Source: an uncultured Desulfatiglans sp. (GTDB lineage Bacteria; Desulfobacterota; DSM-4660; Desulfatiglandales; HGW-15). Taken from it: DNA of 64,000 bases. Of the stretch, positions 9,309-61,706 are shown piece after piece (the first letter of the stretch is position 1; each line of letters begins with the position of its first letter). The position numbers were made by a program, and so were the translations under genes. Under the pieces are notes generated by a model, which did no database searches, was not told the origin of the DNA, and was given only the letters and a program-made list of their open reading frames with translations. The stretch covers positions 13,872-77,871 of the forward strand of contig CAZCMD010000001.1 in the NCBI GenBank assembly GCA_964499695.1. Reading direction: 5' to 3'.

Positions 9309-12300
9309 ATGGCGATGGAGGAAATTATGAGTATGCAGGATGACGAGACCTTGAGACTTTATGTCGAAGAATCAATTGAGCATTTGGCAGACATTGAAAA
9401 TGATCTGCTTGCTATTGAAAAGGATGGCGCTGATATCGATGAAGAACTGGTAAACAAGGTATTTCGTGCTGCCCATTCAATAAAGGGTGGCGCCGGGTTT
9501 ATGGGGCTTAACAATATCAAGGAACTCTCCCATAAAATGGAAAATGTCCTGGGTATGATCAGAGAAAGGGAGATGGTGCCAAACCCTGAAATTGTCAATA
9601 TACTCCTGCTTGCATCAGATACACTAAGAAATCTGCTCAATAATGTCGGCGCCAGTAATGAGATGCCCATTGAAGAACATGTTAATGCCCTTGTTGCCCT
9701 TACAACAGGTGCTGTTCCTGAGAAAAAGGCTATAAAAACAGAGCAAAACATAAACCTGATCTTTGATAATGGCAGGATGACTTTTAATATTTCTGCCTCT
9801 GATCTGGCCAATTCCAGAAAAAAGGGACAATACATATATCTGGCAGAGCTGGATCTTGTTCAGGATGTTGAAAAAAAGGGTCTCACCACTATGGATCTAT
9901 TAAAAAGGCTCAGTGAAAGTGGGACGATTCTATCTAATGAGGTCGATGTACAATCGGTTGGTACACTTGAAAAGTACTCAACATCAAGCAAGGTGCCTTT
10001 TCTCGTCCTGTTCGGGACGATACTTGAACCTGAAATGGTAAACGCCCTTTTTGATATTAATGAAGAGAATATTTACCTGCTGGAAGACAATAACAGTTTT
10101 ATAAGGCTTACCGAATATGGCCAACCTCAAGAAACCGCAGAAGTCAAAAAAAGTCATGAGGAAACTCCTGTGATTCAACCTGAAGAAAAGGCTTTTAAAG
10201 AAGATACAACATCATTCTCTTCCCCTGAAACAGGTTCAACTATTGCTGCCAAAGAAACGGATATATCTGCTTCTTCCGCTTCAAAAACCGCTGATACAAG
10301 CCTGAGGGTCAATGTAAGTCTTCTTGATTCCCTGATGACACTTGCCGGAGAACTGGTACTTGGCAGAAATCAGCTCATGCAGTCTATTGGTCAGAAGGAT
10401 ATCAGGGCAATAGAAGGGACCGGTCAGAGGCTGGATCTTATAACATCAGAGATTCAGGAAGCAATCATGATGACAAGGATGCAGCCGATCGGTAATGTAT
10501 TAAACAAATTTCCAAGGGTTGTAAGAGACCTTGCCCGAAATCTGAACAAGGAGGTTAAGCTTACCATTGAAGGCGAAGGGGTTGAACTGGATAAAACAAT
10601 CCTTGAAGCAATCAATGATCCCCTTACACATCTTGTCAGAAATTCAGTTGATCACGGTATAGAACTTCCTGCTGAAAGGCAGAGGGCAGGAAAGGAATCT
10701 GTCGGTCATGTGTTGCTCAAGGCATATCATGAGGCAGGCCAGGTGAATATAGAAATCAGGGATGATGGAAAGGGCATAAATCCCAACAAGCTGACAAAGG
10801 TTGCCCTTGAGAAAAAGGTGATAACCGAAGATCAGGCAATTTCAATGTCTGATAAGGAAAAGATAAATCTGATATTCCTTCCCGGTTTTTCAACAGCGGA
10901 AAAGGTAAGCGATGTATCAGGGCGCGGTGTTGGTATGGACGTTGTTAAAACCAACCTTGATAAGCTTGGTGGTGTTGTGGATGTGGATTCTGCTATCGGT
11001 AAGGGTACAACTATAAAAATCAAACTGCCCCTTACACTGGCAATTATTCCAAGTCAGTTGATAAGTGTTTGCGGTGAAAGATATGCTATACCACAGGTCA
11101 ACCTTGAAGAACTCTTCAGGATACCTGCCAATCAGGTCAAAGACAGGATAGAAAAGGTCGGTGATGCAGAGGTTGTAAGATTAAGAGGAAGCCTTCTTCC
11201 CCTGATCAGGCTTTCCGATGTTATAGGGATTGAAAGAGAATACATTGACACCAGCGAAAAAATCAAAAAATCTGACAGAAGGGAAAGCATTTCTGACAGA
11301 AGAGGGAGAAAAAGTCCTCTTAAAAAGGCTGTAAAGGATGATATCATCCGCGGGATTAATGAGAGCAGCGAAGGATCGGAAGAAAATGATACAGAAGACG
11401 ATTACTCAAACCGGAGAAAAAAATCCACTGACCGAAGATATCATGCTTCCAGTGCGGTAAATATTGTTGTTGTCTATACCGGGGCACTTAAATACGGGCT
11501 TGTTGTGGATATATTACACGATTCCGAAGAAATCGTGGTAAAACCGCTTGGAAGGCATCTCAAACACTGCAAGGCATATGCCGGCGCCACCATAATGGGA
11601 GATGGCCGTGTAGCGCTGATTCTTGATGTTGCAGGAATTTCCAAGATGGCCCGCCTGACTTCAATGGATGGTACTGAGAGGGCTGTGCAGGTTGCCAAGG
11701 AACAGAGGATGAAGAGCCAGAAAGATATCCAGTCTCTGCTTATTTTCAGGAATGCAGAAGACGAACAGTTTGCAGTCCCCTTAGGTCTTGTTGAAAGGGT
11801 TGAGAAGATAAAACGGACTGACATAGAACATGTTGGAGGGAAAAAGGTTATACAGTACAGGGGTGCAAGCCTGCCTTTATTTGCCATAGAACAGGTAGCC
11901 AATGTAAAACCCCTTTCTGACAAGGAAGATCTGCTTGTAATTGTATTTTCTATCGGTGGAAGGGATATAGGTCTTCTCGCTACACCGCCGCTTGATTCAA
12001 CAGAAGAGGCCCTGACAGTAGATGACATGACCCTCAAGCAGACTGGGATCATGGGTTCGGCCATAATAGGGAATCAGACAACCCTCATGATAAATATCTT
12101 CGGGATTGTCGAGGCCCTTAACCCTGACTGGTTTACCAAAAAGGAAACAGTTATGGTTTCTGAAAACAAGGCCGCTACGGTTCTCTATGCTGAGGACTCC
12201 AATTTTTTCAGGGGGCAGGTTACTGAATACCTGAAGGAAGACGGGTATAATGTTATTGAGGCAGAAGATGGTCGAATCGCCCTTGATCTTATTGAAAAAC

Positions 12301-12548
12301 ATATAGATGAAATTTCCCTTGTTATAACTGACATAGAGATGCCCAATATGGATGGCTTTGAGCTTACATCATATATTAAAAAAGATGCAAGATTCAGGCA
12401 TCTCCCTGTGATTGCCCTTACAACAATGGCAAGCGACGAGGATATCCAGAAAGGGAATAAAGTCGGGATAGATGATTATCAGATAAAGTTGGATAAGGAA
12501 AAGCTGATGAAAAGTGTTTTTCAGCATCTCAAGGCAGTTACGAAATAG
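9309..12548 (+). CDS. cheA: hybrid chemotaxis histidine kinase CheA with two CheW-like domains and a C-terminal receiver
   Basis: P1 motif HSIKGGAG. Kinase boxes NSVDHGIE, DDGKGI, GRGVGMD. Two CheW-like segments separated by a charged insert with repeated DRR. REC at the C-terminus (DIEMPNMDG). The start may instead be the ATG at 9327, which has GGAGG 5 nt upstream. Confidence 0.92.
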   Translation: MAMEEIMSMQDDETLRLYVEESIEHLADIENDLLAIEKDGADIDEELVNKVFRAAHSIKGGAGFMGLNNIKELSHKMENVLGMIREREMVPNPEIVNILLLASDTLRNLLNNVGASNEMPIEEHVNALVALTTGAVPEKKAIKTEQNINLIFDNGRMTFNISASDLANSRKKGQYIYLAELDLVQDVEKKGLTTMDLLKRLSESGTILSNEVDVQSVGTLEKYSTSSKVPFLVLFGTILEPEMVNALFDINEENIYLLEDNNSFIRLTEYGQPQETAEVKKSHEETPVIQPEEKAFKEDTTSFSSPETGSTIAAKETDISASSASKTADTSLRVNVSLLDSLMTLAGELVLGRNQLMQSIGQKDIRAIEGTGQRLDLITSEIQEAIMMTRMQPIGNVLNKFPRVVRDLARNLNKEVKLTIEGEGVELDKTILEAINDPLTHLVRNSVDHGIELPAERQRAGKESVGHVLLKAYHEAGQVNIEIRDDGKGINPNKLTKVALEKKVITEDQAISMSDKEKINLIFLPGFSTAEKVSDVSGRGVGMDVVKTNLDKLGGVVDVDSAIGKGTTIKIKLPLTLAIIPSQLISVCGERYAIPQVNLEELFRIPANQVKDRIEKVGDAEVVRLRGSLLPLIRLSDVIGIEREYIDTSEKIKKSDRRESISDRRGRKSPLKKAVKDDIIRGINESSEGSEENDTEDDYSNRRKKSTDRRYHASSAVNIVVVYTGALKYGLVVDILHDSEEIVVKPLGRHLKHCKAYAGATIMGDGRVALILDVAGISKMARLTSMDGTERAVQVAKEQRMKSQKDIQSLLIFRNAEDEQFAVPLGLVERVEKIKRTDIEHVGGKKVIQYRGASLPLFAIEQVANVKPLSDKEDLLVIVFSIGGRDIGLLATPPLDSTEEALTVDDMTLKQTGIMGSAIIGNQTTLMINIFGIVEALNPDWFTKKETVMVSENKAATVLYAEDSNFFRGQVTEYLKEDGYNVIEAEDGRIALDLIEKHIDEISLVITDIEMPNMDGFELTSYIKKDARFRHLPVIALTTMASDEDIQKGNKVGIDDYQIKLDKEKLMKSVFQHLKAVTK

Positions 12549-15190: not shown

Positions 15191-16081
15191 ATGAGACACA
15201 ATAAATCATACATAGTCTGGATGCCTCAAAATGGTTCCGGTAAAACACATCAGATTGTTATAAACCCATGGTATCTCATTGCGCTTATAATAACCTTTGT
15301 GTTATGTGTCGTTTCCATACCATTTTTCCAGCATCATGTTTTTGCGCTTAATAAGAAGATTGTCTTTCTTGAAAACTCCGGCACCAGCATGAAGTTAGAG
15401 ATAGCAAACCTCAGATACCTTAAAGATAACCTGAGACAGATAGAGGAAAAAGACCATCAACTTTCTGAATATTTCGGGCTGGACAGTGACTCAAATGATA
15501 TGGAAGGATTGCCAGGCAAGGGTGGAATATCCGATAATTCCGGATACATTGAACTGGAGAAAAGTCTATTATCTCTGCCTGATAAAAATGGCCTCTCATC
15601 CCATATTAATAACCTTGATGAAAAATTCAGGAAATATTCTGAACTACTTAAGACCCGGGATCAGATTCTTGAGGTCACCCCCAGTATACTTCCTGTTGAA
15701 AAAAACAACATATCACTCTCATCAGGTTTTGGATGGCGTGAAAATCCTTTTACAAAAACAAAAGAATTTCATGCAGCGATAGATATATCAGGGGATAAAG
15801 GTGAAAAGATCTTTGCACCGGCAAGGGGCCTTGTTCTGAAAACAGGTAATGATAAAAGGATCGGTAAATTTATCCTTATCAGGCATACAGATAGAATAAA
15901 GACCTTATTTGGTCATCTGAGCCATATATATGCAGAAGAAGGAAAAGAGGTAAAGCGCGGGGACAGGATCGGTCTTATGGGAAACACCGGGCTATCAACG
16001 GGCAGTCATCTGCACTATATGGTAATAAAAGAGGGCAGGGCAGTTAATCCCCTTGAGTACATACTTGATATGAGTAACTGA
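15191..16081 (+). CDS. membrane-anchored M23 (LytM-type) peptidase
   Basis: N-terminal TM helix, a coiled-coil segment, and the HAAIDISG...GNTGLSTGSHLHY metal-site motifs. Confidence 0.85.
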   Translation: MRHNKSYIVWMPQNGSGKTHQIVINPWYLIALIITFVLCVVSIPFFQHHVFALNKKIVFLENSGTSMKLEIANLRYLKDNLRQIEEKDHQLSEYFGLDSDSNDMEGLPGKGGISDNSGYIELEKSLLSLPDKNGLSSHINNLDEKFRKYSELLKTRDQILEVTPSILPVEKNNISLSSGFGWRENPFTKTKEFHAAIDISGDKGEKIFAPARGLVLKTGNDKRIGKFILIRHTDRIKTLFGHLSHIYAEEGKEVKRGDRIGLMGNTGLSTGSHLHYMVIKEGRAVNPLEYILDMSN

Positions 16082-16083
16082 TT

Positions 16084-16755
16084 ATGAATTATATCTTTCT
16101 TTTAAACAGGAAAAATATTATACCAGTTTCATGTTTGATTATACTCTTCGTATTGGTCTCAGCCCAATTCTCCGGTGCAGCATTAAGAATGGATAAAGAT
16201 GCTGTTTTTTGCAGCTATTTTATGATTAGTGGTAACAAGCCCTCAGAACAGGACATTGAGGAGCTGTGTTTCAACAGTGGCAGGCCTTCATATACTGCCT
16301 TCAAGCCTTCTGAGATGTTTTCAAAAAAGAGCCTGCTGTCCGAGAAAAAAAAGATAGAAAACAGGATAAATGCCATTTCCGGTGACCCTACAATTATTTG
16401 GAGTGTAAGGCTTGATTCCATGGATGCAGCCGGCATTGAGCGTTTTTTCTCTGCTGATGCCATTAATGACAGTATGCCCCGTCCCACTCCCTACATAAGC
16501 GGAAGGATATCTGAAAACGGGCCGAAGTTTATCAGAAAGACTGTGACAGCATTATTTGACAGATCTTCTGCTCAAAAATATGGGAAAGGGGTTGAGGTAT
16601 TAATCAGCCTGCGGCCTGTCAAGTCTGTATATGAGTATGAAAAGAGAAATATTGTTGAACAGGATGTTCTCCTGCCTATCAGATATGTCATTTTTCAACC
16701 AATAAAAGTCCAGATACTTGACGGAAAATTGTTAAACAATCAATTGAACAAATAA
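16084..16755 (+). CDS. secreted hypothetical protein
   Basis: Signal-peptide-like N-terminus (IILFVLVSAQFSGAA). No motif recognised. The start lies 2 nt after the M23 stop. Confidence 0.55.
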   Translation: MNYIFLLNRKNIIPVSCLIILFVLVSAQFSGAALRMDKDAVFCSYFMISGNKPSEQDIEELCFNSGRPSYTAFKPSEMFSKKSLLSEKKKIENRINAISGDPTIIWSVRLDSMDAAGIERFFSADAINDSMPRPTPYISGRISENGPKFIRKTVTALFDRSSAQKYGKGVEVLISLRPVKSVYEYEKRNIVEQDVLLPIRYVIFQPIKVQILDGKLLNNQLNK

Positions 16756-16833
16756 AACGTAATAACAGAATTGCACTTACCGCCTAATATATTGATTTAA
16801 TTGAATATAAAAAAAGGTATATGCCTGCATATT

Positions 16834-16849
16834 TGGTATATATTTTGCT
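16834..16849 (+). promoter_or_regulatory. sigma54-like promoter candidate (TGGTAT-N5-TTGCT) upstream of the cheZ-like gene
   Basis: TGGTATATATTTTGCT with correct GG/GC spacing but a C-to-T change at -24. Located 54 nt upstream of the ATG at 16903. Confidence 0.35.
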
Positions 16850-16902
16850 TTGTAATTAGAAAGATATTTTTTTGTATTGATCATTATGTGGAGGGTATTC
16901 TA

Positions 16903-17991
16903 ATGGGAAATGTGCTAATGGGTGATCTTGATGGCATGACAGAAAGACTTGCCTTTGATACACATGAGATTGAACAGATTATAACAAGGTACAAGGCCAG
17001 GGTTGTCGCAGGAACAGATGACAATGACTATATGGAATATAATGGCAAAATATTTCCGGTAAAGGGAATAAAAGATACGGAAGGATTAAAACCCTACTTT
17101 ATCATTCTGAAGTCGGGTGTTGCATTTAATGCGAGTGATTATCAGATGCTCTTCAATACAGAAGATCTCCCAAACAGCCTGATTTCCGGGATTGATTCTT
17201 CGGGCAAAAAATATCTGTGCCGTCGTTATTTGAATGGAAGCAGGTTAATGGAAACAACCGTTCAAAAGTATACTGCTGGAAATAACCAGAATCTAACCTC
17301 AGATGAGGCTGAAAAACTAAAGGATGTAATAAATAAGCTGAAAAAGGGAGAGTTTTTTGAACTGCTTACAATGGAGTTTTCCGATAAGATTAAGGGAATT
17401 GCCAAGGAACTGATAGATTTTAGAAAAGATATCCAGACCAGGATAGAGCCTGATATAGTGGAAATAGCATCAAAGGATATTCCTGAGGCAAGCAACCAGC
17501 TTGAAGGTATTAATGAAACCCTTGAAGAAAGCACTATGAAGATAATGGATATCAATGAGGCCCAGATGGAGGCTGCTAATACCCATTACAAGCTTCTCGA
17601 TCAGATACTTGCAAAAAACAGTGACGGAGATGGAAATATTTCTATGGGTTTGAGCCTTGAAGAGGCCATAGAGACCATTGAAAACCAGGTCTCTTTCCTG
17701 AAAGAGATGGAACAGCGGTCACTTACCATGATGGAGCCATTGAGTTTTCAGGACCTTGTGGGTCAGCGTATCCAGAGGATTATTAAACTTGTGAGGTCAA
17801 TGGAGGTAAAAATAGAAGAATTGATCGTCTCTTTTGGAATAAAATTAAAGAAATACAAGGAAGACCCCGAAATAACATATGAGGAACTTAATAAAGATGT
17901 CGATGAGTTCATGTATGAACTAAAAGGTCCACAAAGGTCAGGGGAAGGTCTTGATCAAAAGGCCATTGACGATCTCCTAAACAATATGTAA
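16903..17991 (+). CDS. cheZ: CheZ-like CheY-P phosphatase with a long N-terminal extension
   Basis: SFQDLVGQRIQRI matches the CheZ catalytic D/Q motif (E. coli FQDLTGQVIKR). LKGPQ and the C-terminal DQKAIDDLLNNM resemble the CheY-binding tail. Start set at the ATG with GGAGG 8 nt upstream; the track start at 16801 is a TTG. Confidence 0.8.
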   Translation: MGNVLMGDLDGMTERLAFDTHEIEQIITRYKARVVAGTDDNDYMEYNGKIFPVKGIKDTEGLKPYFIILKSGVAFNASDYQMLFNTEDLPNSLISGIDSSGKKYLCRRYLNGSRLMETTVQKYTAGNNQNLTSDEAEKLKDVINKLKKGEFFELLTMEFSDKIKGIAKELIDFRKDIQTRIEPDIVEIASKDIPEASNQLEGINETLEESTMKIMDINEAQMEAANTHYKLLDQILAKNSDGDGNISMGLSLEEAIETIENQVSFLKEMEQRSLTMMEPLSFQDLVGQRIQRIIKLVRSMEVKIEELIVSFGIKLKKYKEDPEITYEELNKDVDEFMYELKGPQRSGEGLDQKAIDDLLNNM

Positions 17992-18066: not shown

Positions 18067-18444
18067 ATGGGATTTGATACTTCGATCAAGGTATTAGTGG
18101 TTGATGACTTCGCTACAATGAGAAGAATTGTTAAAGGTGTGCTCAAACAGCTCGGTTTCAATGATATAATCGAGGCCGAAGATGGTAATATGGCTCTCAA
18201 AGAACTGCAAAAAGAAAAGGTTGGTTTGATCGTATCTGACTGGAATATGCCCAACATGACAGGGCTTGACCTCCTTAAGGCAGTAAGGGCAGATGAAAAA
18301 CTTAAAAATACACCTTTCCTGATGGTAACTGCTGAAGGACAGAAGGAAAATGTTGTCCAGGCTGTACAGGCCGGTGTAAGTAATTACATTGTGAAACCCT
18401 TTACCCCTGAAACCTTTAGTGCAAAACTGGAAAAGATATTCTGA
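18067..18444 (+). CDS. cheY: chemotaxis response regulator CheY
   Basis: VLVVDDF...SDWNMPNMTGLDLL...YIVKPF. 125 aa single REC domain, GGAGG RBS. Confidence 0.93.
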   Translation: MGFDTSIKVLVVDDFATMRRIVKGVLKQLGFNDIIEAEDGNMALKELQKEKVGLIVSDWNMPNMTGLDLLKAVRADEKLKNTPFLMVTAEGQKENVVQAVQAGVSNYIVKPFTPETFSAKLEKIF

Positions 18445-18627
18445 TAAGAGAAATATTTTTCCGCTAAAAGGGGAAGATTATTCCTTCTTTACGGCAGAAG
18501 ACAAGATGTTAATTGTAATTAAAAATATAAAAAGAATTAAAGAAATAATATGTAACCTGCTGAATATACAGTATAATTTTCACGCTTATCAATGCTGTGT
18601 ATTAACGGTGTATGATCATCCGGATTA

Positions 18628-18643
18628 TGGCAAGCATATTGCA
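18628..18643 (+). promoter_or_regulatory. sigma54-type promoter (TGGCAA-N5-TTGCA)
   Basis: TGGCAAGCATATTGCA, 105 nt upstream of the ATG at 18748. Confidence 0.55.
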
Positions 18644-18747
18644 ATAGAAAAAGATAATTCATATAAAAGGAGATCATACTATTAAGTATGATTTCTGTTA
18701 AATAGTTAATCGTTGTATGATTATCTGAACCGGAAAAGGAGTTAAAA

Positions 18748-19218
18748 ATGAGAATCGATGAAAGTCAGAGAATACTACTGGAACAGCAGGGGAAGGTAAA
18801 TAAATCCAAAAATAATGAGGCTGGAAGTTTTCAGCAGATTATGGAACAATTGACCGCCCGTCCTGAAACAGGGAGGTCTTTGCCCCTGAATATCAATCCG
18901 GTTCAGATATTAGATGGATCAACAGGCATTATTCCTGTAAATGGAGCTGTATCAGGCTCCAACGAAAAGACCATGCTGCTCGATTCCCTGAAGGATACTG
19001 TTAATCTGATCGATTTTTATGCGGGAAAGCTTGAGGATACCTCTTTTCCGGCAGAAGATCTTTCATCCCTTGTTGATAAGCTCGATGAGAAGCTTACTGA
19101 AATAAAAGGCATGTCATCTATGGAAGGCATATCTGACAAACTTAAGCCTGTGATCTCTGATATTGCCGTTACAATGGGTACAGAGATAGAGCGTTTTCGC
19201 CGGGGTGATTATCTTTAA
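18748..19218 (+). CDS. hypothetical protein (possibly a DUF327/YaaR-like flagellar-associated protein)
   Basis: AAGGAG RBS, 156 aa. The N-terminus (MRIDESQR...SFQQIMEQL) only loosely resembles DUF327 proteins. The function is not supported beyond genomic context. Confidence 0.5.
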   Translation: MRIDESQRILLEQQGKVNKSKNNEAGSFQQIMEQLTARPETGRSLPLNINPVQILDGSTGIIPVNGAVSGSNEKTMLLDSLKDTVNLIDFYAGKLEDTSFPAEDLSSLVDKLDEKLTEIKGMSSMEGISDKLKPVISDIAVTMGTEIERFRRGDYL

Positions 19219-19932
19219 CTATATCGGAAAACAGATAACAATATCTGCTGACTGACCTTTTCCGGTCTTAATGATTATTCCATCAGAGTGAAATATCTTC
19301 AATATCAGCATAATGTCTGATTCATTGTCAGGTGCTGTCAGCCTGTCAGATGAAAAATCTTTTTTCAGCATGTCATTGATTATACTGGCAAGATCATTCA
19401 GCCCGGTAACAATGGTAATCTCATAGAAGCCACCATTTTTTACAGTCCTGATATGAAGTGTGCTTTTCTTATTTCTTTCTATCTCTTCTATAATTCTTTG
19501 AAGCAGCCAGCTAAAAGCCAGAATAGAATTTTCAGGAAGGCCGCTTATAAGAGGCGGCTGATCTCCCAGGTCAAGAGTCGTTTCCACGTTATGTTTGTAA
19601 TATAGATTTGTATTAAAAAATAACAATTCCTGTTCAAGGTAGTCATTGAAATTTAATAAACCGTTATATGTATGCATGATCCTGTTGGATGATGCCTTTA
19701 TTATTGTGTTCAAACGATCAAGCTCTTCTTCTATGCGTCTGAGCCTGGGCAGTATATTGCTCTCGTTACCGCCACCAGCCTCCGCCCCTTTTTTAAGCAT
19801 ATACTGAGTCATCTCAAGGTCAAGGCCGATATTCTGTAGCGGGCCGTTTAAATTGTGTATCAGACCACCAGTTACCTTTCCAAGTGAGGCAAGTTTATAT
19901 AATTCGATAAGGCTGTTAAAGGACAGTTCCAT
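19219..19932 (-). CDS. soluble histidine-kinase-like protein with an intact H-box but a degenerate ATP-binding domain
   Basis: LASLGKVTGGLIHNLNGPLQNI resembles an NtrB/AtoS-type DHp H-box. I could not find N, G1 or G2 boxes in the C-terminal half. No TM or sensor domain. Confidence 0.55.
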   Translation of the reverse strand: MELSFNSLIELYKLASLGKVTGGLIHNLNGPLQNIGLDLEMTQYMLKKGAEAGGGNESNILPRLRRIEEELDRLNTIIKASSNRIMHTYNGLLNFNDYLEQELLFFNTNLYYKHNVETTLDLGDQPPLISGLPENSILAFSWLLQRIIEEIERNKKSTLHIRTVKNGGFYEITIVTGLNDLASIINDMLKKDFSSDRLTAPDNESDIMLILKIFHSDGIIIKTGKGQSADIVICFPI

Positions 19933-19937
19933 AATTA

Positions 19938-20498
19938 TTACTCCTCCGGGTTTTTCCTGTTTCTTATGTCGATCCTCTGCTTCTGGAAAATCATTTTTAC
20001 TATTGAATCGTGGGCATCATCTCTTATACAGACTATCCTTGTCGCATAGATATTTTTATCTTTCTTTTTCGTTACCCTCAGTATTTCTGTAATCAGTTCC
20101 ATATGATACTGAACAACACCGGGCATAATAAGTTCCATTTTTAATAAGGCACCCTCTTTGAATTCTTCTTCTGAGGCAAATTTTAGCCCGGAGGCGCTTA
20201 TCTCCATTATGTTGTCATGCCCTGTACATTGGTCTGCTGGTCTGGATAATATCTGTTCGATTATATAGTCAAGCTTATTATTGAGGAGATTGAGTGCCTG
20301 AAAATATTTTTCATCTTTTGAACCCTTTACTGTTTCCTCCAGAATTGTGTCAATCGGGCTGGGTATGCCGCTCTGTTTAAAAAGGGTATTACCAAAACCA
20401 TTTTTTACCGACTGTATCTCATCCTCTGAAAGTAATTTCCACTTTACAGGGACTGTTATCTCAACCCTGAAATGTTCGCGATTGTTTATTTCTGGCAT
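19938..20498 (-). CDS. PilZ-domain protein with a long insertion between the RxxxR and xSxxG motifs
   Basis: NREHFRV (RxxxR) near the N-terminus and EISASGLKF (D/N-x-S-x-x-G-like) about 95 residues later. The ATG at 20498 has GGAG 9 nt upstream; the track start is a TTG. Confidence 0.55.
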   Translation of the reverse strand: MPEINNREHFRVEITVPVKWKLLSEDEIQSVKNGFGNTLFKQSGIPSPIDTILEETVKGSKDEKYFQALNLLNNKLDYIIEQILSRPADQCTGHDNIMEISASGLKFASEEEFKEGALLKMELIMPGVVQYHMELITEILRVTKKKDKNIYATRIVCIRDDAHDSIVKMIFQKQRIDIRNRKNPEE

Positions 20499-20635
20499 CT
20501 TAACCAACTCCTGAATTTTATTATCTTGTACGGATATAAGGACTTCGGAGTATATTATATTTTTTTAATGAATGAAAAGTAAAAACAGATGTGCTTTAAA
20601 AAGTAATATGGGATAATAATATCTCAGTAGGGTTT

Positions 20636-22141
20636 TCAGACAGCAATACTGATCTGCTCCGGAATGGTATTTTCTGTGAATATCCTGAGTGATACCTCTA
20701 CAACCTCAGGGTCAAATTGTGTGCCTTTATTTCTTATAAGCTCTTCAATACATTTATCAATTGGAATCGCCTTCCTGTATGCCCTGTCGGAACTCATTGC
20801 ATCAAAACTGTCTGCAACAATGAGAATCCTTGATAAAAAGGGAATCTCTTCTGCTGTAAGGCCATCAGGATAACCTTTGCCATCCCATCTTTCATGATGA
20901 TTTCTTATTATTGCGAGTTCATCTTTATCCAGCATAAGTGGAGTAACAATGTTTACCCCTATTAAAGGATGTGTCTTTATCTTGTCATATTCCAGTTCTG
21001 TAAGCCTTGTCTTCTTGTTCAGGATACTGTCATCTATACCAATCTTACCGATATCATGTAGAGGTGCGCACGTCCTTAGCCTGTGCAGATCGTCATCAGA
21101 GCAGCCCATTACCTTTGCTATCTCTAATGCATATTTTGTTACCCGTGAAGAATGCTGACGGGTATATTTATCTTTTGCCTCAATAGCCCCTACCAGGGAC
21201 ATCATTGATGCCATAAGGTTTTGCATAAGGTTGTCATACAGGGCCATGTTTTCTATATTCAGGGCTGTTCTTTCGGCCATAAACCTGAGTATGAACTGAT
21301 CATCAGTATCAAATCCGGTATCACCTGCCTTTTCTCCAAGTAAAAGCAGCCCAAAGGGTTCATTCCTGATATTAAATGGAATTGATAGATAATTGCCATT
21401 GTGATCTGTATCGAGGGTAATATTAAAACATCTTTCAAACAGGCGTTTATTGATCTTCTCCTCTGCCTTTTCGTGACCTGTTGAGATACGGGTTCCAGGG
21501 TCAGCATTATCAAGGCCTTTTTGTGAAAGGAGGATATAATTGCTTGCTTTATCATTATCCCTGATAAGAAAACATGCCTTTTTTGCCTGGCATATCTCTA
21601 TACTTTTATTGAGGATAAACCTGTGCAGATCTTCTGTTCTGTTAATCCTTGAAAGAGAATCAACAATGTCATACATGAGTGTCTGGGACCTGATTCTTTT
21701 CTGGAGTTCAACATTGAGCTTTTCCACCTCCTGCTTTTGTTCCAGCTCCTGGTTTAGCCTCCAGTTGTTTTCCATCAGGGTTTTAAGGCGACTGATCCTT
21801 TCAAGGATGATTTTTATATCCTGAAGACGAAAGGGTTTTACCAGAAAATCCGATGCCCCGCTGCGCATTGCATCGATAACAGTCTCCATTGTAGGATAAC
21901 CGGTCATAATTATTACATTTGTCAGTTGATGATTTTCATGTATGCGCTTGAGCGTTTCAAGGCCGCCAATGCCTGGCATCATGAGATCCATGAAGATATA
22001 GTCAAAGGATTCGCGGTCGATCTCAGCAAGGGCCTTTTCGCCGCTGTCCAGGATGGTGATATTCTTGAAATTGAGATGTTCAAAGAACATGCCCAGTGTC
22101 TCACCGACCATCGGATCATCATCGACAATCATTACACGCAT
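20636..22141 (-). CDS. response regulator with REC, GAF-like and HD-GYP domains (putative c-di-GMP phosphodiesterase)
   Basis: REC (MIVDDD, MDLMMPGIGG, VKPF). HD-GYP (PLHDIGKIGI, HHERWDGKGYPDG). The ATG at 22141 is preferred over the GTG at 22198, which would overlap the upstream gene by 37 nt. Confidence 0.85.
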   Translation of the reverse strand: MRVMIVDDDPMVGETLGMFFEHLNFKNITILDSGEKALAEIDRESFDYIFMDLMMPGIGGLETLKRIHENHQLTNVIIMTGYPTMETVIDAMRSGASDFLVKPFRLQDIKIILERISRLKTLMENNWRLNQELEQKQEVEKLNVELQKRIRSQTLMYDIVDSLSRINRTEDLHRFILNKSIEICQAKKACFLIRDNDKASNYILLSQKGLDNADPGTRISTGHEKAEEKINKRLFERCFNITLDTDHNGNYLSIPFNIRNEPFGLLLLGEKAGDTGFDTDDQFILRFMAERTALNIENMALYDNLMQNLMASMMSLVGAIEAKDKYTRQHSSRVTKYALEIAKVMGCSDDDLHRLRTCAPLHDIGKIGIDDSILNKKTRLTELEYDKIKTHPLIGVNIVTPLMLDKDELAIIRNHHERWDGKGYPDGLTAEEIPFLSRILIVADSFDAMSSDRAYRKAIPIDKCIEELIRNKGTQFDPEVVEVSLRIFTENTIPEQISIAV

Positions 22142-22161
22142 GGTATTAAAATCCTGATCTA

Positions 22162-22824
22162 TTATTGCCCTATGTTGCTGAACAGTTTCGACTTGCACAA
22201 TTCAAATTCCTTTCCTGTCAATAGCCCTCTTTCTTTAAGGTCTGAAATCCGTTCAAGATTGTCCAGTATCGAGGTCTTCACATTAGACACTGTACTTGAA
22301 TAGTAAAAGGGCAGCATACTGCCGGCAATTACCGGTCTATCATCCTCATTAGTATTCTCTTCGGGCTTGTAGCTGTTTATCTCAAGCAGTTTTTTCATCA
22401 TATTCAACTGTTCATAGGCATTTTTCAGATCATCTATGAGTTTTCTGTTTTCCCGTATAAGCCTTATCTTTTCACGGGCATTATTTACAATAATCCTTAT
22501 CTCTTCCAGCTTGAATGGCTTTGTAATATAGTCATATGCACCTTCCCTGATTGCCTGAACAGCGGTTTCAAGGGAGGCAAAACCGGTTATAAGTACGACA
22601 AGACAGTCAGGGTCGATCTTTCTGGTTTCAGTCAGGACCTCCAGTCCATTAGCGCCCGGCATCATAAGGTCTGTAATTATGAGATCAAATTTCTCATTTT
22701 TACATAAATCTATTGCCTTTTTGCCATCATTACAAACAGTTACGTCATTTTCCTGGTCAAAAACAGTTTTCAGGGCAGATAGAAGTGTCCTGTCATCATC
22801 AACAATTAACAGTTTTAGTTTCAT
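22162..22824 (-). CDS. response regulator: REC domain fused to a C-terminal SHOCT-like short domain
   Basis: REC (LLIVDDD, TDLMMPGANG, ITKPF). C-terminal LERISDLKERGLLTGKEFELCKSKLF matches the SHOCT pattern. Confidence 0.75.
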   Translation of the reverse strand: MKLKLLIVDDDRTLLSALKTVFDQENDVTVCNDGKKAIDLCKNEKFDLIITDLMMPGANGLEVLTETRKIDPDCLVVLITGFASLETAVQAIREGAYDYITKPFKLEEIRIIVNNAREKIRLIRENRKLIDDLKNAYEQLNMMKKLLEINSYKPEENTNEDDRPVIAGSMLPFYYSSTVSNVKTSILDNLERISDLKERGLLTGKEFELCKSKLFSNIGQ

Positions 22825-22863
22825 CCTTTTTCTCTAATACGGAGGTTATGATAATTTAATTCT

Positions 22864-23244
22864 CTATACCTTCTCATCAAACAAAATGCCTGTCATCTCT
22901 TCAATCCTTGCGGCAAGATCAAGCATTTCTTCAGGGGGAATTTCTCTTATAACCTTTCCGCTCTCTTTTGATATAACCTTTACCATTATTCTTCCGGTCT
23001 TTTCATCTACCTTGATTTTCAGGTCCCTCTGAATTGACTGAACGTAACTGTCCATGGTTTCTGCAATGCGGCCTATCTTGTCACTCAGAGATTCCTTAAA
23101 CTGCTGGAAACCCTGTGCCTCCTTTTTGCTGTTATTATCAGTACTTATAAGACTGCTCTTAATATTTGAAGAGGAGGAGACAGGTGTTATTGCATCAATC
23201 TGTCTTTTTGCAAAGTCTCTGGTGATATTTTGTATAGCTTCCAT
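22864..23244 (-). CDS. flaG: flagellar protein FlaG (paralog 2)
   Basis: C-terminal KIKVDEKTGRIMVKVISKESGKVIREIPPEEMLDLAARI is the FlaG signature. Confidence 0.85.
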   Translation of the reverse strand: MEAIQNITRDFAKRQIDAITPVSSSSNIKSSLISTDNNSKKEAQGFQQFKESLSDKIGRIAETMDSYVQSIQRDLKIKVDEKTGRIMVKVISKESGKVIREIPPEEMLDLAARIEEMTGILFDEKV

Positions 23245-23307
23245 TCAGGGTCCTTCCTGCTTTACATAAAAGGCGTATAAATTCCATATATACCCTATCT
23301 GTATTTT

Positions 23308-23335
23308 TTATCGGCATTAATCCCTTAAGGCTTTA
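23308..23335 (-). promoter_or_regulatory. sigma28 (FliA)-type promoter upstream of flaG paralog 2
   Basis: Reverse strand reads TAAAG-N15-GCCGATAA (TAAA-N16-GCCGATAA), with a perfect -10 element. Confidence 0.55.
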
Positions 23336-23460
23336 ATGATATCCTGATTTTTTTGATTCTAAAGGGTTTGGCCGATAAATAGAAAAACAGGAAAATCCAT
23401 TTAAAAATAAGAAATTCCTGTTTTAAGTTATTCAGGTTGATATTTTATCAGGTATTCTAA

Positions 23461-23844
23461 TTAAACCTTTTGATCAAAGAGCACACCGGAGATCTCTTCC
23501 ATCCTTGCCGCAAGCGCAAGCATTTCTTCTGAAGGAATTTCTCTTATGACCTTTCCGGTCTCTTCGGAAATGACCTTGACTAAAATATCTCCTGTATCGC
23601 TGTTGACCTGGATCTTGATGTCCTTTTGTATTGACCGTACATAATTGTCCATCAGTTCGGTAATACGGGCAATCTTCTCATCAGTGGCTCTTTTTACTTC
23701 TTTCGATCGTTTTCCTGTATTTACTGCATGGAAATTGATCTCGCTGGCACCGGAATTGAGCGGATCAGAGGTTGTCATATGAGACGGTGCAGACAATCCC
23801 TGGTCAATTGGATGATCAACCGGTTTTATTGCTGAAAATGCCAT
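23461..23844 (-). CDS. flaG: flagellar protein FlaG (paralog 1)
   Basis: KIQVNSDTGDILVKVISEETGKVIREIPSEEMLALAARM. Start at the ATG at 23844; the GGAGG RBS lies inside the longer track ORF. Confidence 0.85.
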   Translation of the reverse strand: MAFSAIKPVDHPIDQGLSAPSHMTTSDPLNSGASEINFHAVNTGKRSKEVKRATDEKIARITELMDNYVRSIQKDIKIQVNSDTGDILVKVISEETGKVIREIPSEEMLALAARMEEISGVLFDQKV

Positions 23845-26844: not shown

Positions 26845-26860
26845 TGCAAGATATTTGCCA
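26845..26860 (-). promoter_or_regulatory. sigma54-type promoter upstream of fliD-fliS-flaG
   Basis: Reverse strand reads TGGCAAATATCTTGCA (TGGCA-N6-TTGCA), about 112 nt upstream of the fliD ATG. Confidence 0.55.
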
Positions 26861-26898: not shown

Positions 26899-26953
26899 AA
26901 AAAAAATAAAAAACCCCGCAACCGGGGATCCGGAAGCGGGGTTTTTTATTTTT
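26899..26953 (-). terminator. rho-independent (bidirectional) terminator downstream of fliC
   Basis: A-run, then CCCCGC-16 nt-GCGGGG, then a T-run. On the minus strand the stem is followed by TTTTTTATTTTTTT. Confidence 0.8.
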
Positions 26954-26993: not shown

Positions 26994-27752
26994 CTAGCCG
27001 AACAGAGAGAGTACACCCTGTGAAGACATATTAGCCTGGGCAAGCATTGCAGTACCTGCCTGCAGTAGTATCTGGCTCTTTGTAAAGCTTGACATCTCAG
27101 CCGCCATATCAACATCCCTGATTACAGATTCAGCCGCAGTCTTGTTTTCAATGGTTGTTGCAAGGTTAGCTGCTGCATAAGAAAGCCTGTTCTGTGCAGC
27201 GCCGAGGCTGGCACGGGAATCACTTAATGTACCAGCAGCGGCTGTAACTAGCTCAATATCAGCGGCACCCAAACTTGTTGCACTAAGACCATCAAGACCC
27301 AAATCGGCTGAACTTACGGCGGACGCAGTATAACTTATCTGGCTAAAGGTTGTAGCATCTGCACCAACCTGAATGGTTCCGCTAAGTGATATACTATTCC
27401 CGATTCTGTCTATTTCAGAGAGAAGCTCCTGTGCTTCATCAGCGGCAGTACTACCACCCTGTGTGGCAAGTTCGCCAAGCCTGCTAAGGATATTTGCTAT
27501 CTGGTCATAGGCACCTTCAGCTACCTGAATACCGGCATTTGCCTGTTCAACGTTTCTTGCTGCCTGGGTCAGAGAGGCGATTTCAACCCTTGCTGCTGTA
27601 GAAATTGCCAGACCTGTTGCATCATCAGATGCTTTATTGATTCTGTAACCAGATGACAGCCTTTCCAGTGATTTAGCCATCATATTGCTGGAAATGGTTA
27701 AATTTTTGTGTGCGTTCAATGCCTCGATGTTGTGTTGTATTCTTAATCCCAT
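26994..27752 (-). CDS. fliC: flagellin (short, 252 aa)
   Basis: N-terminal LRIQHNIEALNAHKNL...LSSGYRINKASDDATGLAIS. C-terminal AESVIRDVDMAAEMSSFTKSQILLQAGTAMLAQAN. GGAGG RBS. Confidence 0.95.
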   Translation of the reverse strand: MGLRIQHNIEALNAHKNLTISSNMMAKSLERLSSGYRINKASDDATGLAISTAARVEIASLTQAARNVEQANAGIQVAEGAYDQIANILSRLGELATQGGSTAADEAQELLSEIDRIGNSISLSGTIQVGADATTFSQISYTASAVSSADLGLDGLSATSLGAADIELVTAAAGTLSDSRASLGAAQNRLSYAAANLATTIENKTAAESVIRDVDMAAEMSSFTKSQILLQAGTAMLAQANMSSQGVLSLFG

Positions 27753-27898: not shown

Positions 27899-27926
27899 TT
27901 ATCGGGATAGGCTTGAATAAACTTTA
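27899..27926 (-). promoter_or_regulatory. sigma28 (FliA)-type promoter of fliC
   Basis: Reverse strand reads TAAAGTTT-N12-CCCGATAA, about 145 nt upstream of the fliC ATG. Confidence 0.7.
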
Positions 27927-58830: not shown

Positions 58831-58846
58831 TGCAATATGAGTGCCA
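58831..58846 (-). promoter_or_regulatory. consensus sigma54 promoter in front of galE and the glycosylation island
   Basis: Reverse strand reads TGGCACTCATATTGCA (TGGCAC-N5-TTGCA), about 190 nt upstream of the galE ATG. Confidence 0.7.
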
Positions 58847-59030: not shown

Positions 59031-61706
59031 TTACCTTGCCAGTGCATCCCGTATGGCCCGCCCTATCTTTTCTATATTGTAGGGTTTTTTGATATATGTA
59101 AAGGCGCCAAGTCGCAATGTCTCTCTTACCTGTTCTGTCTCTGAAAACCCGCTTGCGATAACAGCCTTCTGGCCAGGGTGTATTTCAAGTATCTGTCTGT
59201 ATGTCTCAAGGCCGTTAATCCCCGGTTCCATGATCATATCAAGGACAACAAGATCGGCAGAGTTGTTTTTCATATATTCTATGGCCTCCTCGCCACCTGA
59301 AACCGCAGTTACCCTGTATCCCAGTTTATCTAATATCCGGGAGAGGATTATCCTCTGCTCTTCTACATCATCAACAATAAGTATGGATTCACCCTTTGAT
59401 ATATATACATCAAGTGGTATAGAGGTTTTTTTTGCTGCCACATTCTCCCTGCTGGCCGGAAAATAGAGCCTGATAGTAGTTCCCCTGTTTTCTTCACTCC
59501 TTATATCAACATACCCTTTGTGGTCTTTAACTGTTCCCCATACAACGGTCATGCCCAAACCTGTGCCGCTTCTACCCATCTTCTTTTTGGTATAAAAGGG
59601 TTCAAAAATATTTATGAGATCCGTTTCCGGTATACCATCACCTGTATCCGATACAGTGAGTGTAACATACTCCCCCTCTTTGATATTTTCATAACCTGAA
59701 ACAGGTTTGTCCAGGTATTGATTTTCTGTTGATATCTGAATCCTCCCGCCATGAGGCATGGCCTCTGCGCTGTTGGATACAAGGTTCATGATTATCTTTG
59801 AGAGGTGAAAGCCTGACCCCATTATATTGAACAGGCCCTCATCAAGGTTTATATCCACCTCGATAGTTGGATGAAAGGAGAGGATATTTTCACATTCAGG
59901 GCTTTTCAAAAACTCGGTGATTATACTGTTCAGGTTTAAAACCTCATTTACAGAAACCCCTCTTCTTGCAAGGGTAAGAAGGTCCTGCACGATTGCGGCT
60001 GCCTTTTCACCGGCCTTTTTTATTGTAAGGAGCGGGCCTTTAAGGGGATTGGTGTCAGGCATGTCTAATGTCAAAAGTTCAGGATAGCTAACTACACCGC
60101 CAAGGATATTGTTCAGGTCATGGGCCACCCCGGCTGCAAGTGTGCCTATGACCTCCATTTTCTGGGCGCGCATAAGTTTTGATTGCAACTCCTTTGATTC
60201 GGATATGTCTATCACGGTAAGTATCATACCCTTTGAAAGGTCTTTTGAATCAAGGGCGCAGGCACCTAAAATACAGTCAAGTACAGCGCCATTTTTTCTG
60301 GCCCATTGTGTTTCAATGTTGATAGTATCCCCATTAGTATCTGCAAAAAGTCGTTTATCTACGCGCTCATATTCTGTCTCATTAGTGAAAAGTATAGATA
60401 TGTTTTGTCCAATCAGGGATCCTTCTTCGTAGCCGGACATGGTAAACAGTGTTTCATTTGCCCATTCAAGTCTTGCATTGTTTATGAGCCCTATCCCTAT
60501 AGGTGAGGCCATAAGGATGGCCTTCATCTTCTGCTCGCTTTCCAGCAGCACCTTTTCTACCTGCTTTCGTTCTGCAACCTCCTTTTCAAGGGCATCCCTT
60601 GATACTGTTGTGGTTTTCAGGTCATTCACCATCAAGCTGAAACTTTTTGCAAGGTCACCGATCTCATTATTGGAGCGGATATCTATCTCAAGTGATAATT
60701 GGCCTTTACCAATCTTTTTTGCTGCATCCCTGAGTTCTATAACCGGTTTTGTAAGCCTTCTTGACAGGAATACGCCTGATATTACCGCCAGTATAAGGCT
60801 CAGGAGCATGACAGATCCTGAAAGTATAAGGGTCATTACCACAGGCTGATAAGCCTCAAGAACAGGCAATTCAACAATCACAGCCCATTCAGGTGATGAA
60901 AGCGGGACATGGCTTGCAACCACAAGCCTATTGTTAATACCCCGCGATATCCTGGGTGAAATATCAGTCATGTGTGTCTTTTCTTTTACAAAGATATCCA
61001 CCTCCCTGAGATGAGACAGGTTCTCTCTCTTTAATACAGGGGCTATATCCCGATATGCAATCAGGTATCCCTGCTTTTCCACCACATAGGCTACGCCATT
61101 TTCACCGATCCTGATCCTCCCCATCAGGTCCCACATGAATTTAAGATTCAGGTCAGCTATCAGTGTGCCAAGAAAATCGCCAAATACATCTGTTACAGGC
61201 ACTGCCATGATCATCATTGGCTCACTTGTTGTTTCATCAATATATACAGGGCCGATATAGGTTTCATTGTTTTTCGTTTTTTGAAACAATTCATCCCTGT
61301 TGAAGTGCTCAGGTTGTGTGGAATTGATTTTGGTAATACGGGCTATCCTTGCTGTCTCTTCTTTTCCTGAGTCAAAAAGGATCAACTGGCGAAATGCCGG
61401 TTCAAGCCCCATTAATCTTTCAAGGGTTGGTTCCTGTGCCTTTTTTGGGGTAATCGGCATATTTCTGCGTCTTGAGGCGGATTCCAGTTTGGTAAATTTT
61501 TCTTGTATAAAATATTCAACCGCGTTTGCTGCATCCTTTGCTATAAATTTTTGATTTGTCAGTATAATTTTTTGCTGTGCCTGGAAGCTGAAATACATCT
61601 GCAGGGTGGTGGCAATAACAAGGGCCGCCATAGTCAGCACAGAAAACCCTGTGGCCAGTGTAACTGCAAGACTTCTGAATTTTTCTGATTTTTTATTTGC
61701 TGACAA
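59031..61706 (-). CDS. hybrid sensor histidine kinase (TM, periplasmic Cache-like domain, HAMP, PAS, HisKA, HATPase, REC)
   Basis: Two TM helices flank a ~270-aa extracytoplasmic region. AAGVAHDLNNIL H-box, NLVSNSAEAM, SDTGDGI, GTGLGM. C-terminal REC (ILIVDD...LDMIMEPGING...KKPY). TTG start 1 nt after the SBP stop. Confidence 0.88.
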   Translation of the reverse strand: MSANKKSEKFRSLAVTLATGFSVLTMAALVIATTLQMYFSFQAQQKIILTNQKFIAKDAANAVEYFIQEKFTKLESASRRRNMPITPKKAQEPTLERLMGLEPAFRQLILFDSGKEETARIARITKINSTQPEHFNRDELFQKTKNNETYIGPVYIDETTSEPMMIMAVPVTDVFGDFLGTLIADLNLKFMWDLMGRIRIGENGVAYVVEKQGYLIAYRDIAPVLKRENLSHLREVDIFVKEKTHMTDISPRISRGINNRLVVASHVPLSSPEWAVIVELPVLEAYQPVVMTLILSGSVMLLSLILAVISGVFLSRRLTKPVIELRDAAKKIGKGQLSLEIDIRSNNEIGDLAKSFSLMVNDLKTTTVSRDALEKEVAERKQVEKVLLESEQKMKAILMASPIGIGLINNARLEWANETLFTMSGYEEGSLIGQNISILFTNETEYERVDKRLFADTNGDTINIETQWARKNGAVLDCILGACALDSKDLSKGMILTVIDISESKELQSKLMRAQKMEVIGTLAAGVAHDLNNILGGVVSYPELLTLDMPDTNPLKGPLLTIKKAGEKAAAIVQDLLTLARRGVSVNEVLNLNSIITEFLKSPECENILSFHPTIEVDINLDEGLFNIMGSGFHLSKIIMNLVSNSAEAMPHGGRIQISTENQYLDKPVSGYENIKEGEYVTLTVSDTGDGIPETDLINIFEPFYTKKKMGRSGTGLGMTVVWGTVKDHKGYVDIRSEENRGTTIRLYFPASRENVAAKKTSIPLDVYISKGESILIVDDVEEQRIILSRILDKLGYRVTAVSGGEEAIEYMKNNSADLVVLDMIMEPGINGLETYRQILEIHPGQKAVIASGFSETEQVRETLRLGAFTYIKKPYNIEKIGRAIRDALAR

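Follow-up and report, generated by a model that had tools for sequence, protein, structure and literature searches.

A conserved gene cassette in the flagellar locus of an uncultured Desulfatiglans combines a putative tetramer-type PilZ protein, a kinase-dead histidine kinase relative and a predicted c-di-GMP phosphodiesterase

Tetramer-type PilZ (tPilZ) proteins are distinguished by two extra helices (alpha2-alpha3), an insert of about 60 aa between strands beta1 and beta2, and by cyclic diguanylate (c-di-GMP) motifs that lie more than 90 residues apart (10.1101/814665; 10.1101/2020.02.11.943704; PMC11725899); the long inserted helix carries an interlock motif, [DENH]x[KR]h[DEN] (10.1101/814665). 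More than 3,000 such proteins are known, of which only one has an assigned function, FlgX, a stator partner in Campylobacter, whose authors ask whether the ties of tPilZ proteins to flagella extend to other phyla (PMC11725899). Here we describe a four-gene cassette on the minus strand (19219-22824) of a 64,000-nt stretch of DNA from an uncultured Desulfatiglans sp. (GCA_964499695.1, contig CAZCMD010000001.1, positions 13,872-77,871 of the forward strand), called the window below, in whose numbering all coordinates are given. Judged from its sequence, the cassette holds a tPilZ protein seemingly able to bind c-di-GMP, which is a fixed member of a flagellar locus in a phylum other than that of FlgX and is accompanied by defined candidate partners; the stator-binding FlgX is its nearest flagellar precedent (PMC11725899).

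Three further groups of described proteins serve for comparison. A stand-alone PilZ protein has been proposed to steer two-component phosphoryl flow by c-di-GMP in Pseudomonas aeruginosa, where the adaptor HapZ gates phosphotransfer from SagS; HapZ is a canonical monomeric PilZ protein that binds the receiver (REC) domain of a hybrid kinase (10.1101/2020.02.11.943704), whereas the partner of the cassette tPilZ protein is deduced from gene coupling alone. ChpT of Caulobacter and Brucella and Spo0B of Bacillus, like the predicted last product of the cassette, consist of a dimerization and histidine phosphotransfer (DHp) hairpin with a conserved His and of a domain that resembles the catalytic and ATP-binding (CA) domain but does not bind ATP; ChpT resembles a histidine kinase (PMC3433190). 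Finally, in HD-GYP enzymes the motif RxY[K/R] goes with c-di-GMP specificity and RxxQ or RxxN shifts it towards cyclic GMP-AMP (cGAMP), while a Glu equivalent to E185 of PmGH marks the trinuclear class that proceeds to GMP (10.1101/2021.11.05.467447).

Composition and conservation of the cassette

Examination of the region between the flagellar filament genes and the chemotaxis cluster revealed flaG followed by four head-to-tail genes on the minus strand, coding for a REC-SHOCT regulator, a REC-GAF-HD-GYP regulator, a PilZ protein interrupted by a long insert and, last, a protein that resembles a kinase. A preliminary description of this DNA had listed four co-directional genes with these motifs 3' of flaG and had seen no obvious terminator. 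The genes and motifs were found again at the same coordinates, and no terminator-like sequence was seen within the set, neither in the flaG-REC interval nor 3' of the HD-GYP gene. The features of the cassette are the following:

22162..22824, minus strand: REC-SHOCT single-domain response regulator, 220 aa (Pfam Response_reg match and conserved tail)
20636..22141, minus strand, with an open reading frame (ORF) that reaches a GTG at 22198: REC-GAF-HD-GYP response regulator, predicted c-di-GMP phosphodiesterase (Pfam matches, alignments with Protein Data Bank (PDB) entries)
19938..20498, minus strand: stand-alone tPilZ-like protein, 186 aa, with both c-di-GMP motifs (Pfam PilZ match, model)
20229..20432, minus strand: insert of the PilZ protein, aa 23-90, between beta1 and beta2, with short helices and a long helix 61-84 (model)
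19219..19932, minus strand: putative pseudo-histidine kinase, 237 aa, with a DHp hairpin (aa 5-86) and a CA-like alpha/beta domain (aa 95-237) (model, alignments)
19855..19857, minus strand: codon of the invariant phospho-acceptor-type His26 (family alignment)

Exact look-ups combined with a scan of one genome per species yielded 37 related loci, whose gene order was determined by tblastn of the window proteins. The carriers are nearly all metagenome-assembled genomes (MAGs) of Desulfobacterota, for the most part Desulfatiglans-like, with the labels Desulfatiglans, Desulfatiglandales, Desulfobacteraceae or Thermodesulfobacteriota, and identity at the PilZ protein ranges from 84% in the closest related locus down to 23%. 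The order REC, REC-HD-GYP, tPilZ, histidine kinase-like occurs in about 20 full copies, and the pair formed by the last two genes in 30 of the 37 loci; several others end at a contig edge, and six have only a shorter stand-alone PilZ relative. The usual flanks are fliD, fliS and flaG upstream (flaG copy 1 lies directly 5' of the REC gene in most loci) and a convergent 156-aa gene with cheY/cheZ downstream. The four genes are thus a conserved unit beside flagellar and chemotaxis genes.

The spacing of the genes is also characteristic. In most loci the tPilZ stop codon and the start of the kinase-like gene overlap or lie at most 3 nt apart; they are 5 nt apart in the window, where the GGAGGAG of the pseudo-kinase gene lies inside the PilZ gene. 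A gap between the HD-GYP and tPilZ genes is always present and measures 37-598 nt across the loci (137 nt in the window). The parts of the cassette are all of known kinds, and their conserved combination in four genes is undescribed as far as the searched literature shows. The same literature also leaves as new the tPilZ subfamily and the pseudo-kinase family, both missed by current models, and the occurrence of live and dead kinase states at one orthologous position. That current Pfam models catch neither family amounts to an annotation gap.

The tPilZ-like protein and its kinase-like partner

The PilZ gene starts at ATG 20498 behind a GGAG and codes for 186 aa, the form in which public data hold the protein; the 189-aa ORF gave no match in an exact look-up because the real start is the downstream ATG. 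The Pfam PilZ match reaches 24 bits and covers aa 96-172 only. Both c-di-GMP motifs noted earlier, RxxxR and xSxxG, were recovered as R7-E-H-F-R11 and E99-I-S-A-S-G104 with about 90 residues between them. R7 and R11 are invariant, and the hSxxG part of the second motif is kept in all cassette copies, which represent about 30 species-level genomes. In the AlphaFold model, strands at residues 12-22, 92-100, 104-109, 118-125, 131-145 and 148-158 are followed by a C-terminal helix (160-182). The long helix of the insert carries N73-N74-K75-L76-D77, in which K75 is invariant and the other residues are at least 90% conserved, and this NNKLD fits the interlock pattern of tPilZ proteins.

A Foldseek search of PDB structures with this model gave four chains of XCC6012 (3PH1/3RQA) as best matches, at E values of 6e-6 to 6e-5 over 172-180 columns (177-178 columns, the full length, for the top ones), followed by MotI, YcgR and Alg44, which match on the barrel. 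The stand-alone PilZ relatives that the genome scan had turned up make a sister subfamily of their own; one member (L040) passes the Pfam tPilZ family PF16823 with 27.9 bits against a cut-off of 25, and profile-profile comparison joins the cassette subfamily to this sister subfamily over its full length (probability 99.6%, E 6e-24). On the modelled structure, the interlock motif and the sister subfamily, we assign the PilZ protein to the tPilZ class. The insert, called unusual in the preliminary description, is accordingly the known two-helix insert by which that class is defined.

Like XCC6012, PA2989 and FlgX, the cassette protein stands alone, is about 185 aa long and is predicted to combine a PilZ barrel and a basic C-terminal helix with the two-helix insert; the interlock reads DAKLD in XCC6012 and NNKLD here. 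It resembles PA2989 in keeping the binding motifs and FlgX in sitting among flagellar genes. It differs from the published tPilZ proteins in that the region equivalent to alpha2 is longer and, in the model, broken into short helices, and in that its gene always comes with genes for a (pseudo-)kinase and an HD-GYP regulator; the accessible portions of the tPilZ literature mention no (pseudo-)kinase or HD-GYP gene as neighbour of a known tPilZ gene.

The PilZ barrel, the c-di-GMP motifs and the flagellar context are shared with YcgR, MotI and FlgZ. The cassette protein differs from them by its insert, its probable tetrameric state and the want of a PilZN (YcgR_N) domain; no match to PilZN was obtained in the PilZ protein, whose RxxxR starts at residue 7 of 186. 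A protein with no PilZN domain and a single tPilZ-type domain is therefore not of the YcgR/MotI type, and the brake or clutch of that type suggested earlier belongs to the wrong family. FlgX offers a different flagellar model, in which the cassette protein would be a constitutive stator partner that does not respond to c-di-GMP, with the HD-GYP regulator serving general turnover. Loss of c-di-GMP binding is frequent among tPilZ proteins (10.1101/814665), which speaks for such a role. However, RxxxR and [E/D]hSxxG are present in every cassette copy down to the most divergent, whereas FlgX and XCC6012 are without both motifs; a c-di-GMP phosphodiesterase is always co-encoded, and no motAB genes were found within the 64-kb window. 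We consider a constitutive, FlgX-like role very unlikely.

The product of the last gene matches no Pfam family, HATPase_c included, and gives weak matches to NCBIfam histidine kinases over aa 6-80; some sources label it 'sensor kinase'. The H-box GGLIHNLNGPLQN is present with an invariant H26, and the ATP-binding boxes N, G1, F and G2 are absent. The preliminary description had spoken of a kinase-like protein without ATP-binding boxes, and indeed the kinase fold was recovered and the ATP site is gone. The model (predicted local distance difference test score, pLDDT, 84; predicted template modelling score, pTM, 0.79) shows a DHp hairpin (helices 5-52 and 57-86) and an alpha/beta domain. Foldseek retrieved with it the histidine kinases DesK, HK853 and WalK at E about 1e-8, while the best template modelling (TM) scores (0.45-0.53) and root-mean-square deviations (6-7 A) among the fold matches were those of the ChpT phosphotransferases 4FPP/4QPK. 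With the family profile, FixL could be aligned over its DHp and catalytic domains at E 2e-4, an alignment in which neither the Asn of the N box nor the G1 box is conserved. A profile search of all PDB sequences, which found the FixL and ZraS kinases, did not find ChpT or Spo0B. With no sequence kinship detected, the pseudo-kinase does not belong to the family of ChpT and Spo0B but is their analogue, in its fold and in having lost the ATP site, and its phosphotransfer is a prediction.

The origin of this protein can be read from the related loci. In four of them (L033, L036, L037 and L039) the corresponding gene codes for a complete, sensorless kinase about 265 aa long, in which the boxes are LNHILQNAIEA (N), DTGCGI (G1), FTPFYTTK (F) and GLGLFL (G2); in the alignment of all loci, every other one, the window included, is without the four boxes at this position. 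Since four distant cassette copies have an intact kinase here, the window gene descends, by its sequence relationships, from the kinase that belonged to the cassette and is now kinase-dead. When 1.8 billion representatives were searched exhaustively with the profile, 55 clusters were returned at E <= 1e-30, of which the full-length ones are nearly all about 240-250 aa and none has the boxes. The phospho-acceptor His is kept in every one of the roughly 55 clusters that cover the site. Scores then fall to about 1e-23, where real kinases with intact boxes begin, small sensorless ones among them. Invariant in the family are His26, within GGLIHNxNGPLQN, and a family-specific NLYxKHN block, and conservation along the protein is highest in the DHp/His region. 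Given the invariant His and DHp and this descent, the idea of a passive remnant does not hold.

The Asn that follows the His had been considered as a sign against kinase activity; this argument was withdrawn because the real kinases next in the ranking, a large intact subfamily, share the HNxNxPL box. The pseudo-kinase differs from ChpT and Spo0B also in descending independently, from this 'HNxNxPL' subfamily, and in that orthologues with an apparently working ATP site survive in the cassette. One partial homologue (P0115) is labelled Methanosarcina sp. in NCBI; it probably stems from a Desulfobacterota genome and was misplaced in binning.

A conserved DHp region above a degenerate CA domain would also suit a dedicated phosphatase, or a partner that sequesters both receivers, with phosphoryl groups coming from an unlinked kinase or from acetyl phosphate; DHp domains of bifunctional HisKA kinases do carry phosphatase activity. 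However, the residue at H+4 is an invariant Gly in the pseudo-kinase, whereas HisKA-type phosphatase motifs usually have Thr, Asn or Gln there, and several kinases need no His for their phosphatase activity. We regard a phosphatase or sequestering role as unlikely, if still to be reckoned with.

The same evidence bears on a circuit of the kind put forward in the preliminary description, in which the PilZ protein would be a YcgR/MotI-like brake or clutch reading the c-di-GMP level set by the HD-GYP regulator, the kinase-like protein would be inert, and the Che/Hpt system would supply phosphoryl groups. Such a circuit agrees with the flagellar and chemotaxis neighbourhood, with the presence of MotI and YcgR among the structural matches of the barrel, and with the C-terminal REC domain of the window CheA. 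It conflicts with the single tPilZ-type domain without PilZN, and also with the pseudo-kinase, which is under strong purifying selection, with an H-box invariant in about 55 clusters and a gene always coupled to that of the PilZ protein. Furthermore, the related loci that have the cassette encode a CheA without REC. The Che system was rejected as phosphoryl source, there being nothing beyond adjacency to connect it and the CheA-REC fusion not being conserved with the cassette. Taken as a whole, this earlier circuit seems to us quite unlikely.

The receivers, the phosphodiesterase and a possible circuit

The REC-SHOCT protein matches Pfam Response_reg over aa 6-113 (E 2e-28). Its phospho-acceptor set is legible in the sequence (D9/D10, D52, T80 and K102), and both regulators of the cassette have the DD pair, the D in DLMMPG, the T in (L/M)TG and the K in KPF; the two receivers share 35% identity over REC and linker. 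C-terminal to the receiver of REC-SHOCT come a helical linker, a conserved IAGSMLPFYY motif and a SHOCT-like tail, LERISDLKERGLLTGKEFELCKSKLF (aa ~190-214), conserved in 23 of 23 extracted orthologues. In the window protein the SHOCT match (PF09851) is weak, 13.3 bits against a cut-off of 27, and seen only when the tail is scanned alone. The assignment was accepted because orthologous tails pass the cut-off (three of nine, with 31.9, 29.2 and 27.5 bits). A homologue search with the tail alone returned three proteins and was uninformative. We take the layout, in which one single-domain and one output receiver are encoded together, to resemble those of Spo0F-Spo0B-Spo0A and of ChpT with CtrA and CpdR.

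The second regulator matches Response_reg (E 1.3e-27), HD_5 (2e-35) and HD (2.4e-21), and its likelier start is ATG 22141 (MRVMIVDD), since the listed GTG 22198 overlaps the upstream gene. The GAF domain stays below the Pfam threshold (GAF_3, 18.9-19.8 bits against a cut-off of 27), but aa 160-486 align with the GAF-HD-GYP protein PmGH (4MCW) from PmGH residue 15 on, at E 7.8e-38. The motifs read earlier as kept, HD (HDIGKIG) and GYP (HHERWDGKGYPDG), are both present. Across 25 orthologues the HD, HHExxDGxGYP (HHERWDGKGYPDG here), a downstream Asp and RAYRK are conserved, so that all catalytic and metal-binding residues of the domain are kept with the exception of the optional third-metal Glu. 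The position of PmGH E185 is occupied by Tyr in all 25 orthologues, and the enzyme is therefore assigned to the binuclear class with the linear dinucleotide pGpG as predicted product. The HD-GYP domain is thus predicted to be active and to cut c-di-GMP to pGpG.

The enzyme shares HD, HHExxDGxGYP, RxY[K/R] and the full set of binuclear metal ligands with RpfG-type REC-HD-GYP enzymes and with PmGH, and with the latter also a GAF-like domain ahead of HD-GYP. It differs from PmGH by the change of E185 to Tyr, by KKT in place of KPG in the window's clade, and by joining REC and GAF in one protein. The best single PDB sequence match is V-cGAP3, a cGAMP phosphodiesterase (5Z7C, E 1.8e-41). Together with the altered KPG, the motif that contacts the second base, this could mean that the enzyme acts on 3'3'-cGAMP and that the PilZ protein is not its read-out. 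But the base-specificity motif in the window is R-A-Y-R-K, that is RxY[K/R], whereas cGAMP-shifted enzymes have RxxQ or RxxN (10.1101/2021.11.05.467447). KPG is intact in most orthologues outside the window (KKT) and its near relatives (KTS), and a receptor of the c-di-GMP type is co-encoded. Because of the RxY[K/R] motif above all, we judge cGAMP specificity highly improbable.

Taken together, we give an even chance to a scheme in which the cassette codes for a c-di-GMP phosphodiesterase under the control of a phosphorelay, for a receptor of the tPilZ class and for a histidine relay like Spo0B or ChpT. The His-bearing DHp protein would still exchange phosphoryl groups with the two co-encoded receivers, because the His and the DHp remain most conserved after loss of the ATP site. 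It may relay them in the manner of Spo0B and ChpT, from REC-SHOCT through His26 to REC-GAF-HD-GYP, or it may be the phosphatase of the receivers, an unlinked kinase being the presumed source. Phosphorylated REC-GAF-HD-GYP would set the phosphodiesterase activity, and hence local c-di-GMP, once the late flagellar genes are on, and a tPilZ tetramer would read this c-di-GMP. Since the genes are always coupled and the ancestral kinase has no sensor domain, the tPilZ protein probably docks on the (pseudo-)kinase protein, where it would gate phosphoryl flow and close a feedback loop; the precedent of HapZ and SagS also backs this target. In addition, or instead, it might bind the stator as FlgX does, a target backed by the flagellar setting and by FlgX itself. 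The most specific form of the scheme, in which c-di-GMP-loaded tPilZ in complex with the kinase-dead DHp protein gates flow between the two receivers and so controls the phosphodiesterase of its own ligand, is in our estimate doubtful.

Several observations weigh against this scheme. An invariant His would also be expected of a phosphatase or of a purely structural DHp domain, and no PilZ-kinase fusion occurs among the 150 best kinase relatives, whose N-terminal domains are REC or PAS-like. For the two candidate phosphoryl sources in the window, the CheA-REC protein and a dCache-HAMP-kinase-REC hybrid (59031..61706), no evidence links either to the cassette. The second PilZ motif opens with Glu in the window and with Asp in some orthologues, where the consensus is Asp/Asn; the tPilZ protein PA2989 binds c-di-GMP despite a Ser at this place (10.1101/814665; PMC11725899). 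The structural match of the PilZ protein is moderate (TM about 0.47, model pLDDT 77), PF16823 matches none of the 28 family members (window and 27 relatives) even at E <= 10, and the family profile searched against the sequences of solved structures found no tPilZ, with chance-level matches only. The KKT in the window's clade is a small unexplained deviation. Finally, all cassette carriers are uncultured MAGs, and the promoter calls given below are consensus matches rather than mapped starts.

If the scheme is true, this would be the first tPilZ protein known to control a phosphorelay, and a case of a histidine kinase turning into a Spo0B/ChpT-like relay with live and dead states surviving at orthologous positions in different lineages. 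The cassette offers in this respect a natural series at one gene position, from a predicted working sensorless kinase to a kinase-dead protein that keeps its His, which may inform on the origin of such relays.

Transcription units and wider surroundings

Five further features concern the expression of the cassette and its immediate neighbours:

23308..23335, minus strand: sigma-28-type motif TAAAG-N15-GCCGATAA, situated in the 216 nt that precede flaG copy 1
22864..23244, minus strand: flaG copy 1, 126 aa, first gene of unit 1 (Pfam FlaG, E 1e-24)
20554..20583, minus strand: promoter-like element TTTACT-18-TATAAT upstream of the PilZ gene (10/12 consensus matches, in the conserved block 20569-20588)
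18748..19218, plus strand: conserved 156-aa neighbour gene, convergent, recurring in related loci, cassette membership uncertain
18628..18643, plus strand: putative sigma-54-type promoter TGGCAAGCATATTGCA upstream of the 156-aa gene (motif in 24/25 related loci)

The sigma-28-type pattern occurs twice in the 64-kb window against 0.31 occurrences expected by chance, the other one preceding the flagellin gene, and it is conserved 5' of flaG copy 1 in L005, L006 and L010. Upstream of the PilZ gene, the block with TTTACT-18-TATAAT is conserved in the window's clade, whereas distant loci have instead TGGCAT-N5-TTGCA, of sigma-54 type, in at least 10 of 28. This sigma-54-type element precedes the PilZ gene in L002, L015, L016, L018, L020-L023, L027 and L028. 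The promoter before the tPilZ/pseudo-kinase pair appears to have switched type, distant relatives having the sigma-54-type element where the window's clade has the conserved block, which is sigma-70-like. This arrangement suggests two units: one of the late flagellar class, made up of flaG, REC-SHOCT and HD-GYP, and one in which tPilZ and the pseudo-kinase share a promoter of their own. The separate sigma-28-type and pre-PilZ promoters thus speak against a cassette simply appended to the fliD-fliS-flaG operon, as had been supposed. The idea that the conserved gap ahead of the PilZ gene holds a riboswitch or another RNA was rejected: with Rfam, nothing in the window reached the gathering threshold, and the part from 18300 to 23600 gave nothing even at E <= 1.

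The stop codon of the convergent 156-aa gene abuts that of the pseudo-kinase gene without spacer. Its product matched no Pfam or NCBIfam family in scans of the window proteins, and it has a conserved C-terminal ...KFRRGDY; in related loci the motif before the gene is TGGCA-N6-TTGC. Most likely the gene belongs to the flagellar or chemotaxis genes and has so far escaped recognition as such. Further into the chemotaxis cluster (9309-12548 and 15191-17991, plus strand), CheA is 1079 aa long, shows three stretches like CheW and ends in a REC domain, versus 725 aa without REC in related loci; the che operon also contains an M23 peptidase, a 223-aa protein of no family and a 396-aa CheZ that matches CheZ in its C-terminal half only.

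On the other side of the cassette, the window has two flaG paralogues 216 nt apart (gap 23245-23460). In L001 (2503-5042), the paralogues are separated by the genes of two further proteins, a REC-PAS-HATPase_c kinase of 568 aa and a REC protein of 277 aa, and a weak REC-type match lies at this position in L006 (about 1814-2194) and L010 (about 2618-3064). The proteins between the flaG paralogues in these relatives are possible candidate kinase partners, missing from the window. The filament genes show a sigma-28-type motif before the flagellin gene, then a GC-rich hairpin with a T run as putative flagellin terminator, then a sigma-54-type motif before fliD-fliS-flaG (27899-27926, 26908-26927 and 26845-26860, minus strand); a further, third sigma-54-type motif was found at 58831-58846. 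The flagellin ORF (26994-27752, minus strand) is short, with 252 aa and little or no variable middle domain, and fliD is long, with 763 aa in the window and more than 1000 aa in relatives. The hybrid histidine kinase at 59031-61706 (minus strand, 891 aa) has the architecture dCache_1-HAMP-PAS-like-kinase-REC; with its C-terminal receiver it would itself need a histidine phosphotransfer partner.

Finally, a long low-GC stretch (about 28000-58700, minus strand) extends 5' of the flagellin gene, with a GC content of 0.32-0.37 between 28 and 38 kb. It is rich in genes for glycosyltransferases (GT), methyltransferases, sugar-nucleotide enzymes and aminotransferases, has one for a glycerophosphotransferase, and is probably a flagellin glycosylation island. 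It also contains, at 36395-38884, an 829-aa ORF that no Pfam model matches, at 43098-46946 a GT2-GT4-GT1-methyltransferase fusion of 1282 aa, and a gene for a class-II 3-deoxy-D-arabino-heptulosonate 7-phosphate (DAHP) synthase (50572-51915).

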